Assembly: GCA_048939995.1 (NCBI GenBank)
Contig: JBHLOY010000002.1
Location: 32,001 to 96,000, forward strand
Source of the DNA: Promethearchaeota archaeon
Lineage (GTDB): Archaea > Asgardarchaeota > Lokiarchaeia > Sigyniarchaeales > SOKP01
DNA: 64,000 bases
Direction: 5' to 3'
A program made the translations under genes and the position numbers. The number at the start of each line of letters is the position of its first letter. Within the stretch, counting starts at the first letter, position 1. A model generated the notes under the pieces. The model made no database searches. It saw only the letters and a list, made by a program, of their open reading frames with translations, and was not told where the DNA came from. Positions 3,425-9,546 of this stretch are shown in pieces.

Positions 3425-3511
3425 TTATAAAGCACTTTTATTCTAAAAGTAAATTATTCATAATTAATGAGAATAAACATTTAAAATTATACAAATCAAA
3501 AAAGAAGTGAA

Positions 3512-5083
3512 TTACCAAGGTCTTCTGAGCGTAGTCATTCTACTCATTGTAGATTTATTAGGATAATCTAAATTATAATGAATCCCGCGACTTTCTTTTC
3601 TGGAGATTGCACTTACTATTATTATTTTTGCCACGGTTGCTAAATTTCTTAATTCAAGTAGGTCTCTTTCGATCTTAAAATCCCAATAGTATTGGTTAAT
3701 CTCATCAAGGAGCAAGTTGATCCTCTTTTTGGCACGTTGCAATCTTAAATCAGTTCGAACAATTCCAACATAGTTCCAGCAGAATCGGCGTATCTCATCC
3801 CAATTCTGGGTGATAACCACCGCTTCTGTGGAAGGAACAGCATGTCCGGGTTCCCATCCCTTAAATTCGTTAACTTTTAAATCGGTTACTTGTTTTGCAA
3901 GAGTCTTTGCACATTCATTGGCACATACTAGGCCTTCCAATAAAGAATTACTAGCTAATCGATTTGCTCCATGTAATCCTGTACAAGCAGATTCTCCAAT
4001 AATATATAAATTTTTAACTTTTGTAGATCCATCAAGTTTAGTTAATACACCTCCACAACAATAATGTGCTGCTGGAACCACTGGAATTGGCTCTTTAGTA
4101 ATATCTATATTGAAATCCTTACAAGCCTCATATACTCCAGGGAAATGACTTCTAATAAAATCAGGACTCTTATATGATGCAATATCTAAGTAAACATAAT
4201 CGTCCCCAGATCTTTTGAGCTCAGCATCTATTGCTCTTGACACAATGTCGCGGGGAGCTAATTCCTTTAAAGGATGATAATTCTGCATAAATGCATTTCC
4301 TTTCAAATCTTTAAGAACCGCTCCCTCGCCACGCATCGCCTCAGTAATTAGAAGTGACTTGGCAAAAGGGTGATATAAACATGTAGGATGAAACTGATAA
4401 AATTCCATATTTGCAATTATAGCACCAGCTCGATATGCCATAGCAATTCCATCTCCAGAGGCTACATCAGGGTTTGTAGTATATAGATAAATTTTACCTG
4501 CTCCACCAGTAGCTAAAACAGTTACCTTAGATGCAATATTATGAATCTCATCAGTATTTTGATCCAAGACATATAACCCATCGCATCTGAAGTTGTTTGA
4601 AAATAAGTTAATTCCAACCCAATATTCATTAATCTCAATATTATCATATTTTTTTACCTCTTCAATTAACTTCAGTGCTATGTTTTGACCTGTTAAATCA
4701 TTTACATGAAGTATTCTCCTTTCAGAATGTCCTCCTTCTTTTCCTAGATCATATCGTCCATTCTCATCTTGAGTAAATTCAATACCCAAATCCATTAATT
4801 CTCTTATTCTTTCTGGTGCTTGGGTAATTATCCTTCTGACAATATTTTCATCGCATAAACCATCTCCAGCTACTATTGTATCTTGAATATGTTTTTCAAA
4901 ATTATCATTCTCATTCCAAACACAAGCAATCCCCCCTTGTGCATAAAATGTATTAGATTCTTTCAAGCCTTCCTTCGTAATTATCAAAATATTCTGATCT
5001 GGTGCTAATTGTGCTAATTTGATTGCCAATGTTAACCCAGAGATTCCTCCTCCAACAATTAATATATCAGTTTTAAGCTTCAA
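3512..5083 (-). CDS. nadB: L-aspartate oxidase
   Basis: GGGISG FAD site, AQGGIA, EGGHS.RRILH, QFHPT, GLHGANRLASNSLLE. Confidence 0.95.
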   Translation of the reverse strand: MKLKTDILIVGGGISGLTLAIKLAQLAPDQNILIITKEGLKESNTFYAQGGIACVWNENDNFEKHIQDTIVAGDGLCDENIVRRIITQAPERIRELMDLGIEFTQDENGRYDLGKEGGHSERRILHVNDLTGQNIALKLIEEVKKYDNIEINEYWVGINLFSNNFRCDGLYVLDQNTDEIHNIASKVTVLATGGAGKIYLYTTNPDVASGDGIAMAYRAGAIIANMEFYQFHPTCLYHPFAKSLLITEAMRGEGAVLKDLKGNAFMQNYHPLKELAPRDIVSRAIDAELKRSGDDYVYLDIASYKSPDFIRSHFPGVYEACKDFNIDITKEPIPVVPAAHYCCGGVLTKLDGSTKVKNLYIIGESACTGLHGANRLASNSLLEGLVCANECAKTLAKQVTDLKVNEFKGWEPGHAVPSTEAVVITQNWDEIRRFCWNYVGIVRTDLRLQRAKKRINLLLDEINQYYWDFKIERDLLELRNLATVAKIIIVSAISRKESRGIHYNLDYPNKSTMSRMTTLRRPW

Positions 5084-5206
5084 AGAAATCTTTTTAATAA
5101 ATTCATAAAGAAATATTAAAATACCAAAATGAAATTAAAATTTTATATCTTTTTGAAAAAATCATCATAATTTTTTTTTAAATTGTTAAATTTGTCTAAA
5201 CAAATT

Positions 5207-5731
5207 ATGGGAAAAATAAAAAACGTACTCTTTGTCTGTAGTGGAAATAATAAATAATTACCCATAAATACTGCAAGGAGTCCAGCAGCAGAATATCTCT
5301 CGAAATGGTTAAAAGAAACAAAATTCAAAGAAGATTTAAAGGACGTTCATTTTAACTCTGCTGGTCTTTACAGTTATTATAAAACTCCCCAAGAAGGCAC
5401 ATCTCATTATCTTGAATCAAAAGGTATTGATTTCAGCGATTTTAGGGGAAAAGTGATTACTGAAGAATTAATCAAAAAGCAGGACTTAATCTTAGGTTTT
5501 GAAGAAAAATGGCATATTAGAAAATTGAAAAGAAGATTTAAAAATCTGAAAGAGTTAGATAAAAGAATTTTCTTGTTATTAGATTTTGCGGGAGAAAAAG
5601 GAGACCTTGAAATTCCAGATCCCATTAATTTTGAACCAGAAGAGTATAGAACAACAATTAAAAGAATTGAAAAAGCATTACCTAAAGTATTACAAAAGAT
5701 AATCGATATAAATAAGACTGATCTAAAATGA
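5207..5731 (+). CDS. Low-molecular-weight protein tyrosine phosphatase family protein interrupted by a 21-nt insert (candidate intron 5247..5267); 167 aa if spliced
   Basis: ATG 5207 MGKIKNVLFVCSGN[NK*LPIN]TARSPAAEY...SAG...DLILGFE...IPDP; the same frame stays open from 5258 to the stop at 5731. Confidence 0.85.
5247..5267 (+). other. Candidate bulge-helix-bulge/loop (BHB/BHL) intron in mRNA
   Basis: 4-bp central helix GUGG(5241-44)/CCAU(5262-65), AAA bulges at 5245-47 and 5266-68, inner UAAU/AUUA helix, outer exon stem; cutting after bulge nt 2 restores CSGNTARS. Confidence 0.65.
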
Positions 5732-6204
5732 AAAAAATCAGAAATATTATCTTCATCTGTTTAGGAAACACTGCTAGATCACCTACAGCAGAATTTTTAG
5801 CAAAATTCTATGCAAAAAAGTATGATATTAAGCTTAATATTGAAAGTGCAGGTTTTATGAATGCTTTCTCTTATATGCAACCAGGATCCCAAAAATATTT
5901 GAATGCTAAGGGTATAGATCATTCGGATTTCAAACCTAAGATTCTTAGCAAACCTTTACTTGAAAAACAAGATTTAATTTTAACAATGGAGCGGTCGCAA
6001 TCAATTGAAATAATTAGAAATTTTTCTTCTATCAGTAATATTAACGAAAAAGTCATGACTCTAAAGGAATTTAATGGGGACTTCTCTAATCGAGACATTA
6101 TGGATCCCTACTACACTAATTCTGATACTTACTTGAAAATATTAAAGATTATTGACATTAATATTGAAAATTTAATTCAAAAAATTAAAGAGAGAAATAA
6201 TTAA
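5728..6204 (+). CDS. Low-molecular-weight protein tyrosine phosphatase family protein (intact paralog)
   Basis: FICLGNTARSP P-loop, ESAG, DLILTME, DIMDPY. Confidence 0.9.
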   Translation: MKKIRNIIFICLGNTARSPTAEFLAKFYAKKYDIKLNIESAGFMNAFSYMQPGSQKYLNAKGIDHSDFKPKILSKPLLEKQDLILTMERSQSIEIIRNFSSISNINEKVMTLKEFNGDFSNRDIMDPYYTNSDTYLKILKIIDINIENLIQKIKERNN

Positions 6205-6216
6205 ACCTATTTATGC

Positions 6217-6825
6217 TTAATGCTTCTTAAAAAGATTCTTTTTAGATAAGAGGCTTAACTCAGAAATTAACCAGCATACTTCTTCATAAGTGGCAGATGA
6301 TTTTAGAATTTCTTCTGATTTTTTCTTGATCTGATTTTCAGTGATTTTACCTTTTTCTTTTATAATAGCTAGTTGTAGTTTAGCAAGTTCTCTACATAAT
6401 TCTTTATAATCTCGTTTTTTCTGTGTTAATTCATATGCTGCTAAATTGATTTCTGCAATTAGATCTGGTTCTAATCCCGCTTCAATAAGTTCTTTAGTAT
6501 CCTCTATTTCTAATTCTAATTCAGGGCGTACTTCAATTATTCCATTATTAGCCCCCTTAGATTTATAAGTATCCATAATTGCTAAAAATCCTCCAAATTC
6601 TTGATTTTGCTGAATCACTTGAATTTTTGCTGGGATACTTCTTTCTCTATTAAGCTTATTAGCCCTATTTAAACTCAAATCCTTTTTCTTTTTAGAAGCT
6701 TTTTGGCCTTGCCATATATAAATTATGTTTACTCCATCAATGAGATAGACTCTAGTACTATCATTAAAGTTCAATTTTGCAGTTTTTCTTAGAGAACCAT
6801 TCTCAGCAACGTTATAAAAAGGCAT
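6217..6825 (-). CDS. Gelsolin-domain protein with C-terminal helical domain (1DGelX-like)
   Basis: VYLID...IYIWQG.KAS...I.Q.QE...F gelsolin pattern; C-terminal Y.ELC..LA / YEEVCWLISE. Confidence 0.75.
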   Translation of the reverse strand: MPFYNVAENGSLRKTAKLNFNDSTRVYLIDGVNIIYIWQGQKASKKKKDLSLNRANKLNRERSIPAKIQVIQQNQEFGGFLAIMDTYKSKGANNGIIEVRPELELEIEDTKELIEAGLEPDLIAEINLAAYELTQKKRDYKELCRELAKLQLAIIKEKGKITENQIKKKSEEILKSSATYEEVCWLISELSLLSKKNLFKKH

Positions 6826-6905
6826 GTAATTTCGAATATCAGTTTTATAATATTATAATAAAAATAGCGGAACTTATTTTTAATTTTAAAGAAAAAAAAG
6901 ATATA

Positions 6906-8033
6906 TTACTCACACTTTTCTGGATTTAACTTACAAAAGTTAATAGATGAAACAATATCATCTTTACCAATCAGGCCTAAGATGTAATCTGCCCCATGTT
7001 CTTTTACAACAATCAATTCTGGCTTTTTATCTATTTTTAAAAATGTTTTCATTACATCACTTCCTAAATCATTGTCATAGATCATAGGAAAATCAGCAAT
7101 ATTTCTCATAATGTAACCAACAATCATCCTTGATCTTTCATTAATCGGAATTCTTTTTATATCATTAATATGAATAATACCCACAATCTGACTATTTTTC
7201 ACCACCGGAAAATATGACTTCTTATATAGCATGAAATAATGATCAATAGCTTCAGATATAGTTAGAGTAAAAGGTATTTCCATTCTCGGTAGACTTACCA
7301 TATCCTTTGCATTTAAATGTGAGAGTGCTTCTTGATTTACAACTTGAAGGTATGATTGTTTTGTTTGATTATTTAAAAAAGTTCCAATTATAATCATCCA
7401 AAACCCATTTAGAAGTCCAAAAAGTAATATTTGAATAAATCCGAAAGCCATAAGACCATAAGCAAAGAAAGTCCCTATCCTTGATGCTGTCTTTGTTGCA
7501 GAGATCAAATTCTTACGCCTCGCCCAGAGAAAAGCTCTTAGAATTCTACCACCATCGATAGGAAATGCAGGAAGTAAATTAAACAATCCCAAGCCAACGT
7601 TCGATACACCAGAATAGAATAAGGTTATAATAACTCCAACAGGAAAAGGTATTGGTATGGTGAAAAGTATTATAAGCAATAGACCTCCAAGTATTAAACT
7701 AGAAAGTGGTCCGACTGCAGATATTATTATTTCACTTTTAGGAGTTTTAGGTTCCTCTTCGATTTTTGAGGCTCCTCCAAATAAATACAGTTCAATCTCT
7801 TTAACTTTTAATCCATATTTCTGGGCTACTATAGAATGAGCCAGTTCGTGTAATAAAATAGAGCCTAGAATTATAACCCCATTTATAATTCCAACTAATA
7901 ATAAATCAATAAAAGATGCCATAGGAACTAGAGATGCATAAAAATTTGCTGCATAAAATCCAACTAAACCTATTATCAGTAGAGTGCTTAAATGTAATTT
8001 AATTTCTATTCCATAAATGGATCCAATCTTAAT
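6906..8033 (-). CDS. Site-2 (M50) metalloprotease with CBS domains, probably starting at ATT
   Basis: HELAH, FNLLPAFPIDGGR, CBS pair; frame extends to ATT 8031-8033 (xKIGSIYGIEIKLH), with AGGTGA upstream and an in-frame TAA directly before. Confidence 0.88.
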   Translation of the reverse strand: MKIGSIYGIEIKLHLSTLLIIGLVGFYAANFYASLVPMASFIDLLLVGIINGVIILGSILLHELAHSIVAQKYGLKVKEIELYLFGGASKIEEEPKTPKSEIIISAVGPLSSLILGGLLLIILFTIPIPFPVGVIITLFYSGVSNVGLGLFNLLPAFPIDGGRILRAFLWARRKNLISATKTASRIGTFFAYGLMAFGFIQILLFGLLNGFWMIIIGTFLNNQTKQSYLQVVNQEALSHLNAKDMVSLPRMEIPFTLTISEAIDHYFMLYKKSYFPVVKNSQIVGIIHINDIKRIPINERSRMIVGYIMRNIADFPMIYDNDLGSDVMKTFLKIDKKPELIVVKEHGADYILGLIGKDDIVSSINFCKLNPEKCE

Positions 8034-8352
8034 TTATATCACCTAAATTCATTTTTTTTAAATCTATTATTGTCCAAATCTTGATTTCTATTATTATCTT
8101 AAAAATTAGGTTATAAAATTCTCTTTATTATTGCTGAGAACTAATTTTCTCTTAATATTTATTAATAAAAACTTAATCTTCGATTAGTCTTTTAATTAAA
8201 AAGTCCATAATTACCATTTTTTTTCAAATGAATCTAATTATTTAAGAAATAGATCATCGAGGTGACTCTTAAGATAAAGAAAATGTTAAAAGTTATAAAA
8301 AAAACAAGATTTAATTATTTGTAAAAATCTTTATCTTAAAATATATCATAGG

Positions 8353-9546
8353 TTGAAATTAAAAATGGTTAAAAATATCTTAGTTTTAGGAGCTGGATTG
8401 ATGGGAAGTGGTATTGGACAAGTTGCTTTAATGGCAGGATACAATGTAACAATGGTAGATATTAACGATGAACTTGTAAATAAAGGATTTGCTCAGATTG
8501 AAGGAGGCTTAAAGAAACTTGAAACAAAAGGGGCTTTAGGAGAGGGAATAACTGCAAATGACATTTTGGCTCGGTGTAAGAAATCTATTGACCTTGCGTC
8601 TGCAGTTAAAGAAATAGATTTTGTAATTGAAGCCGTAATTGAGAAAATGGATATTAAAAAAAGTGTTGCTAAAGCCGTTATGGAAAATGGGCCATCTCAT
8701 ATTATTTTTGCATCAAACACTTCTACGATGAGTATAACAGAAATAGGAAAGGATTGTGGAGCTCCCGATCGTGTTTGTGGAATGCATTTCTTCAATCCTG
8801 TACCTCTAATGCGATGCGTGGAAGTTATAAGAGGTAAAGATACTTCAGATGGGACTTTTAATATCGCTATGGAGGTTGCTGGTAAATTACCATGTCTTAG
8901 AGGTCAAAGGTATATTGCCCCTGTATTGAAGGATAGACCCGGTTTCATTGTAAATCGAATGAATGCACCGGTTCAAATTTATCTGAATTGGGCTTTTGAT
9001 GAAGCTAAAAAGAATAATATTGCTTGGGAACGTCTAGATGCCGATGCTGGTGGAAAAATGCCTATGCCACCTTGTGTTTTGACAGATTTTGTCGGCCTCG
9101 ACACTACTTTTCATGTAATGAATTACTATAAAGAAACTTTATCTCCCGATTTTGAACCAGGAATAGTAATTAATGAATTGGTAGAAAGCGGTAATTTAGG
9201 CCAGAAAACTGGAAAAGGATTCTACGATTGGAGTCAAGGAAGAGAAGCAATTATGGCTAAGATAAAAGTTGCTGAACCAGCAAGTCTTTTTGACTTAAAT
9301 ACGGTTTTTGCTATAATGTTGAATGAAGGATGTCGTATCTTAGATGAGGGTATTGCTAGTGGATTTAAAATTATTGATGATGCAAATATGGCTGGTATGA
9401 ATGCCCCAGGACCCTTTGGAGCTGGGAAGAAGAACTATGAAGAATGGACCAAAGTCTTGAACAATTTAGCAGACAAAACTGGTAAAGACTATTTCAGACC
9501 AATAGATTTGATGAAATCAGGAGAATTCTCTAAAATGAGGAAGTAA
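8353..9546 (+). CDS. 3-hydroxyacyl-CoA dehydrogenase
   Basis: GAGLMGSGI, EAVIE, ASNTS, GMHFFNP, PGFIVNR; likely start ATG 8365. Confidence 0.93.
   Translation: MKLKMVKNILVLGAGLMGSGIGQVALMAGYNVTMVDINDELVNKGFAQIEGGLKKLETKGALGEGITANDILARCKKSIDLASAVKEIDFVIEAVIEKMDIKKSVAKAVMENGPSHIIFASNTSTMSITEIGKDCGAPDRVCGMHFFNPVPLMRCVEVIRGKDTSDGTFNIAMEVAGKLPCLRGQRYIAPVLKDRPGFIVNRMNAPVQIYLNWAFDEAKKNNIAWERLDADAGGKMPMPPCVLTDFVGLDTTFHVMNYYKETLSPDFEPGIVINELVESGNLGQKTGKGFYDWSQGREAIMAKIKVAEPASLFDLNTVFAIMLNEGCRILDEGIASGFKIIDDANMAGMNAPGPFGAGKKNYEEWTKVLNNLADKTGKDYFRPIDLMKSGEFSKMRK

Follow-up and report, generated by a model that had tools for sequence, protein, structure and literature searches.

A predicted 21-nt bulge-helix-bulge intron in the catalytic loop of an LMW-PTP gene of a Promethearchaeota archaeon

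Results

An insert with a stop codon breaks the catalytic loop of a phosphatase gene

The window analyzed here is a 64-kb stretch of DNA from a Promethearchaeota archaeon (contig C17:32001-96000 of the host genome G000, which comprises 3.75 Mb in 38 contigs with 30% G+C), and positions refer to this window unless a contig is named. Window positions 5207-5731 hold a coding gene of the low-molecular-weight protein tyrosine phosphatase (LMW-PTP) family, referred to as gene A, whose C-x5-R loop is broken by 21 nt (5247-5267) containing an in-frame TAA. Read from ATG 5207, the frame gives MGKIKNVLFVCSGN, followed by NK-stop-LPIN and next by TARSPAAEYL..., and is open to the TGA at 5729-5731. The part behind the insert matches Pfam LMWPc (PF01451) with an E value of 2.7e-17 over profile positions 8-142 of 144, and the DP acid motif, IPDPINF, is located close to the C-terminus; the NCBIfam matches of gene A were weak and under the cut-off. 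The C-x5-R-(S/T) loop of the family, C11-SGNTA-R17-S in this case, is present only once the 21 nt are removed. An earlier account of this DNA made from its letters alone, hereafter the sequence-only reading, had described a TAA-bearing 21-nt insert in the P-loop of an otherwise intact LMW-PTP gene, and both the frame and the Pfam match agree with that description. The locus is composed of the following elements.

Exon 1: 5207..5246, + strand, MGKIKNVLFVCSG plus the first base of an Asn codon; the protein is identical in the closest relative, G019, with two synonymous changes.
Candidate intron: 5247..5267, + strand, 21 nt with the in-frame TAA at 5255-5257, splitting the Asn codon of C-S-G-N-T-A-R-S as A/AT.
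Exon 2: 5268..5731, + strand, (A)AT ACT..., encoding NTARSP... to the TGA at 5729-5731, with the Pfam LMWPc match and the DP motif.
Junction peptide of the predicted spliced product: NVLFVCSGNTAR.
Paralog B, tandem and intron-less: 5728..6204, + strand, with CLGNTARS and a match to Pfam LMWPc; its ATG overlaps the stop codon of gene A (ATGA).

In the public annotation of both G000 and G019, gene A is a 155-aa 'hypothetical protein' (5264-5731 in the window) that begins with MNTARS and has no catalytic cysteine. The protein collection contained no full-length form with 100% identity, such as a spliced transcript or an allele lacking the intron might have supplied, the only entries being these truncated 155-aa calls for the two genomes. 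Taken at face value, the calls, which start just before NTARS, would mean that translation begins internally and that only the post-insert part is made, as a Cys-less, non-catalytic protein with the LMW-PTP fold. There is, however, no ATG, GTG or TTG at that place; exon 1 encodes the identical protein in G019, from which it differs by synonymous changes only, and its sequence is under the further constraint of pairing with exon 2; and splicing would give back precisely the motif of the family. An internal start is thus extremely improbable.

The insert is present in independent DNA and is single-copy

Logan contigs from three other studies (P2, P3, P4; X2, X5, X9) span 5247-5267 without any indel or substitution. 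The insert is therefore found unchanged in independent DNA, a check that the sequence-only reading had proposed, and an assembly artefact is ruled out by these independent contigs. In run X10, from a fourth metagenome, two low-depth contigs meet at 5236-5244, at the 5' edge of the insert; low coverage is the likely cause, and polymorphism is a possible one. The insert with its flanks has no further occurrence in the genome, even at a tolerance of four mismatches, and this single-copy state rules out a repeat or a miniature inverted-repeat transposable element. An Rfam scan of 5000-5900 returned nothing relevant.

The insert and its exon flanks form a bulge-helix-bulge in one excision register

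The minimum-energy RNA fold of 5222-5286 (-14.2 kcal/mol, z = -2.44, with 5 of 200 shuffles folding equally well) reproduces every helix named in the sequence-only reading and is identical to it in the bulges and the unpaired C as well. Its components, as they stand in the minimum-energy fold, are listed below, with variants from the other genes that carry an insert at this site (five genes in all, described in the next section).

Exon-exon stem, 9 bp: 5227..5235 with 5273..5281, + strand.
Outer helix h, GUA/UAC, 3 bp: 5238..5240 with 5269..5271, + strand; an A-U pair is replaced by G-C, on both sides, in G143.
Central helix H, GUGG/CCAU, 4 bp: 5241..5244 with 5262..5265, + strand; the G.U pair is replaced by C-G in G022 and G010.
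5' bulge, AAA: 5245..5247, + strand, with the predicted cut after 5246; AAA or AAG in all five genes.
Inner hairpin h': 5248..5260, + strand, UAAU (5248-51) paired with AUUA (5257-60) around the loop AAAUA; C5261 is unpaired.
3' bulge, AAA: 5266..5268, + strand, with the predicted cut after 5267; invariant in all five genes.

The fold possesses the two 3-nt bulges around a 4-bp helix that define the motif known as bulge-helix-bulge (BHB), and the layout is the same in G019, G022 and G010 and, one mismatch apart, in G143. The flanking helices of the strict hBHBh' form are present too, with an inner side that is slightly relaxed (4 bp and one unpaired C). Each bulge sits 3' of a strand of the central helix, which is the strand order of canonical tRNA introns at position 37/38, where EndA cuts after the second base of the bulge. 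Cutting after the second bulge base here would restore AGT GGA AAT ACT and with it the family motif CSGNTARS, and this rule holds for each of the five genes, G010 with its 5' bulge AAG among them. That removal of 5247..5267 would restore SGNT, as the sequence-only reading had put forward, is confirmed on the sequence. Six excision registers yield an identical product because of the AAATA repeat, and BHB geometry arises in only one of them (cuts after 5246 and 5267), which is the register that had been preferred. When composition-matched shuffled or random 21-nt inserts were placed at the site, a frame-restoring strict BHB was obtained in 0.4% and 1.3% of 20,000 trials, respectively.

Inserts recur at the same site in the genus and their pairing covaries

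The comparison set consisted of 42 genomes of the genus, in which the insert was searched by sequence patterns. The closest relative, G019 (85% protein identity), carries a 21-nt insert in the same place with two changes, through one of which the inner helix grows to 5 bp; the G019 copy contains two stops. Inserts of the same site and the same phase were found in three further LMW-PTP genes, all belonging to a second paralog clade.

G022: 21 nt; central helix CUGG/CCAG, inner helix UGUUU/AAACA.
G010: 21 nt; AAG as the 5' bulge, AAA as the 3' bulge.
G143: 33 nt; longer inner hairpin.

No insert is present in the remaining orthologs that were inspected, about 21 drawn from 24 genomes, which read CSGNT(C/S)RS. 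The pattern hits L041 and L042, together with most of the metagenome hits, proved to be unrelated genes or intron-less sites and were discarded. When mapped on a tree of 42 members of the family, presence of the insert requires four changes, of which at least three are imposed by well-supported branches.

Alignment of the five sites gave 94.3% paired cells, versus 43-57% when the partners were slid by 1-3 columns. Four pairs, located in the outer, central and inner helices, have changed on both sides, among them the pair 14/55 in the exons and the pair 15/51 in the central helix, and the covariation score was equalled by 1 of 500 shuffles for a set of five sequences only, about four of which are independent. 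The sequence of the inner helix is wholly different in G022 and G143 with pairing retained. The exon-exon stem keeps 8-9 of its 9 pairs in all five insert-bearing genes, whereas the median for 37 intron-less genes is about 5. Presence and absence among relatives and compensatory changes, both of which had been proposed for inspection in the orthologs, were accordingly observed.

The P-loop segment of gene A in G000 resembles paralog B. Co-conversion, by which the intron would have been brought in with flanking exon from a paralog, was considered and rejected, since CSGNTARSPAAEYL and almost identical exon DNA are found already in closer intron-less relatives (P0011, P0014; L082, L083). L082 and L083 are the nearest intron-less orthologs; their empty site reads GGA AAT ACA and retains 7 of 9 stem pairs, and the order of nadB-like gene, PTP-A and PTP-B is conserved in both. 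Because the P-loop protein and the exon DNA are shared with intron-less relatives, the comparison shows a site that was, or stayed, competent for the exon half of the motif.

The five genes also bear on translational bypassing, in which ribosomes would take off at AAT 5246-48, land at AAT 5267-69 and skip the 21 nt in an uncut mRNA. In G000, G019, G022 and G143 the insert does lie between matching AAT/AAT (or AAT/AAC) codons, with a stop 1-3 codons further on and a hairpin in the gap, and phage T4 gene 60 likewise has a short stop-bearing gap between matching codons. In G010, however, the pre-gap codon is GGA, followed by AGT, so that the copy has no matching pair, whereas the BHB cut rule yields the right product there. 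Bypassing also does not predict two 3-nt bulges 4 bp apart, nor the compensatory changes in the exon-exon stem. Moreover, the T4 system lacks the geometry of a BHB and depends on a nascent-peptide signal, and the mere 14 residues made before the hop would make a signal in the style of gene 60 impossible. We therefore consider bypassing very unlikely.

The interrupted gene has evolved under constraint

Across an alignment of 504 coding bases, 59 substitutions separate the genes of G000 and G019 (33.5 synonymous, 25.5 non-synonymous), corresponding to a dS of 0.48 and a dN/dS of 0.138; there is no indel, and both differences in exon 1 are synonymous. The low dN/dS and the lack of indels since the G000/G019 split indicate that the gene was not broken before that split. 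Metagenome contigs provided three more alleles of the G022-type gene, which are intact except for the insert and have dN/dS values of 0.25-0.30.

These values can be set against the possibility that gene A is dead or dying, the insert being a duplication or transposon footprint, marked by the AAATA repeat, in a pseudogene that the neighbouring paralog had rendered superfluous. The in-frame stop in the catalytic loop, the short flanking direct repeat, the intact paralog adjoining it and the insert-free state of most orthologs are all in keeping with decay of this kind. Yet the insert is older than the G000/G019 split, across which the gene has remained free of indels at low dN/dS, and the dN/dS of the G022-type genes points the same way. 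In addition, independent paralogs carry different inserts with the same phase, site and structure, the direct repeat is a consequence of the BHB's two-fold symmetry, and the insert is single-copy in the genome. A pseudogene is thus hardly credible. The one-off footprint in a decaying gene, which the sequence-only reading had itself named as the finding that would speak against its proposal, is not what the shared insert and the substitution pattern reveal.

The host encodes the splicing enzymes and carries similar inserts in other genes

The genome encodes both activities that splicing of a BHB intron would involve.

EndA-domain genes (PF01974), two: C3:124319-124543 and C28:98308-98556.
RtcB: C19:20594-21901.

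ARAGORN called introns in 15 of the 24 host tRNAs, and heavily interrupted tRNA genes in Asgard archaea are the subject of a 2026 preprint (bioRxiv 10.64898/2026.10.13.758758). Asgard EndA is described as an (alpha-beta)2-type enzyme with an L1 loop (PMC5829648), and enzymes of this type are reported to be capable of cutting non-canonical introns (PMC5829648).

Five further protein genes of the host genome contain BHB-like inserts.

purA (single gene): C7:109897-109926, - strand, 30 nt with a TAA, inside GDEGKGK; central helix GGGG/CCCU, bulges AGA and AUA, weak outer helix.
uL11: C23:129198-129234, - strand, 37-nt AU-rich hairpin near the N-terminus, shifting the frame; removal gives ...TGGSASGGPPIGP.
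Acyl-CoA dehydrogenase-like gene: C17:23476-23508, + strand, 33 nt with a TAA, at ERLGI/MGSGIG; central helix AGGU/GCUU with two G.U pairs, strong inner hairpin.
Amidohydro_3 gene: C17:377423-377452, - strand, 30 nt, textbook hBHBh' at -28.9 kcal/mol; its two exons align to positions 1-288 and 303-472 of the Pfam profile.
AIR-synthase-related gene (PurM/HypE-like): C23:175418-175447, - strand, 30-nt textbook BHB; exon 2 starts at position 43 of the AIRS N-terminal domain profile.

The inserts of the Amidohydro_3 and AIR-synthase-like genes came from a geometry scan of the genome and were checked by Pfam. Such a scan had been suggested by the sequence-only reading, and it yielded textbook BHB inserts in these two genes and total hit numbers no different from those with control bulges. 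The acyl-CoA dehydrogenase-like insert lies on the same contig as the window, 8.5 kb before it. The cbf5 gene of the host is uninterrupted.

Neighbourhood of gene A

The upstream neighbour, on the opposite strand, encodes an L-aspartate-oxidase-like flavoprotein. Downstream, 6217-6825 (- strand) encodes a 202-aa protein with a gelsolin repeat (Pfam E value 7.5e-8), which is one of the eukaryote-signature domains that typify Asgard archaea. Given the ATGA overlap at 5728-5731, translation of paralog B may depend on ribosomes finishing gene A and hence on splicing.

Discussion

We infer that 5247-5267 is very probably a 21-nt archaeal BHB intron in the coding sequence of an LMW-PTP gene, to be removed by EndA and RtcB, a reading supported by the conserved and covarying structure, by purifying selection and by genes for the enzymes in the host genome. 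In the proposed route, the intron and its exon flanks would fold in the pre-mRNA into an outer helix, a 3-nt bulge, a 4-bp helix, a second 3-nt bulge and an inner hairpin. A two-subunit EndA would cut after the second base of each bulge, that is, after 5246 and after 5267, and RtcB would join the exons to GGA-AAT-ACT, giving an enzyme of 167 aa whose C-x5-R-S loop is uninterrupted, whereas the unspliced mRNA would give a 16-residue peptide only.

Several observations weigh against this interpretation. No RNA run was listed as matching window positions 3500-8500. With the patterns used, an insert in any LMW-PTP paralog was found in 5 of the 42 species of the genus. The inner helix of gene A consists of only four A-U pairs beside an unpaired C, and the central helix contains a G.U pair; in G010 there is nearly no inner helix, and in G143 the central helix has a C.U mismatch. 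Two of the three metagenome alleles carry an uncompensated change in the inner helix, which fits a helix of lesser importance. Finally, BHB-like geometry was encountered about 175,000 times genome-wide, no more often than with 2-, 4- or 5-nt bulges, and filters for restoration of the open reading frame combined with stricter helices still gave no genome-wide excess over the control bulge sizes. Geometry alone is common by chance in a genome of 30% G+C, so that the weight of the argument rests on the comparative evidence, and introns in this AT-rich host genome cannot be counted by geometry alone.

The sequence-only reading had gone beyond a BHB intron for EndA and RtcB, a predicted role that the comparison of sequences strongly supports, and had suggested that conditional removal gates production of the phosphatase in the manner of HAC1/XBP1, for which we found no support. 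Regulation would suit the fact that no active enzyme can come from the unspliced mRNA, and through the ATGA overlap splicing could also affect paralog B by translational coupling. On the other side, there is no known sensor or condition, similar inserts are found in the housekeeping genes purA and uL11, and most species are intron-free, which renders regulated splicing unlikely. Removal of the intron is inferred to be constitutive rather than regulated: an element that is tolerated and always taken out makes for a simpler account, considering the inserts in purA and uL11, the occurrence in 5 of 42 species and the insert-free state of most orthologs.

A broader view of the BHB intron in gene A is somewhat more likely than not, although held with much less assurance than its identity as an intron. 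The 21 nt would then be one of the micro-introns of about 20-40 nt that EndA and RtcB splice genome-wide in ordinary protein genes of Promethearchaeota, including the essential single-copy purA and uL11. This would mean that the archaea most closely related to eukaryotes routinely splice the coding part of mRNAs by proteins alone, with repeated gain of introns where codons can form the exon half of a BHB.

The scarcity of BHB introns in mRNA, which the sequence-only reading had noted with crenarchaeal cbf5 as its example, is borne out by the literature searched, with one Haloferax case in addition. The pre-mRNA of cbf5, encoding a pseudouridine synthase, contains a BHB intron in Crenarchaeota (Watanabe 2002; Yoshinari 2006; Yokobori 2009, PMC2738675), and in the literature searched cbf5 is the only archaeal coding sequence named as needing BHB splicing (PMC7714728, PMC2738675); a paper on introns in Asgard coding sequences was not found there. 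Haloferax volcanii HVO_1309 has a BHB intron in the 5' untranslated region (Schwarz 2020, PMC7714728).

The phosphatase case resembles cbf5 in having a BHB inside a coding sequence, a host with a hetero-oligomeric EndA, and an intron that is present or absent among relatives. It differs in the gene family (LMW-PTP) and the lineage (Promethearchaeota, Asgard), and in an insert that is 21 nt long, in frame and stop-bearing and recurs at one site across paralog lineages; furthermore, splicing has been demonstrated experimentally for cbf5, whereas for LMW-PTP it is predicted. With archaeal tRNA and rRNA BHB introns it shares two 3-nt bulges, a 4-bp helix, flanking helices, the predicted cuts and the predicted enzymes, EndA and RtcB, except that the presumed substrate is an mRNA. 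HVO_1309 also provides an mRNA substrate for the splicing endonuclease, but in an untranslated leader, while the LMW-PTP intron interrupts a catalytic motif. The likeness to HAC1/XBP1 is conceptual only: splicing there is protein-only and non-spliceosomal and alters the coding of an mRNA, with an RtcB-type ligase in metazoa, but the nuclease is Ire1, the recognition motif is another one and the process is stress-regulated.

Gene A would thus represent a second, unrelated gene family with a BHB intron in its coding sequence, in an Asgard archaeon whose genome has signs of several more. Introns of this kind may be hidden in databases as N-terminal truncations. If RNA data confirm the splicing proposed here, gene callers systematically mis-annotate such genes, and the tRNA-splicing machinery would have a wider part in archaeal gene expression than has been described; Asgard genomes would then be a manageable setting in which to study how coding sequences acquire introns, and keep them, when there is no spliceosome.
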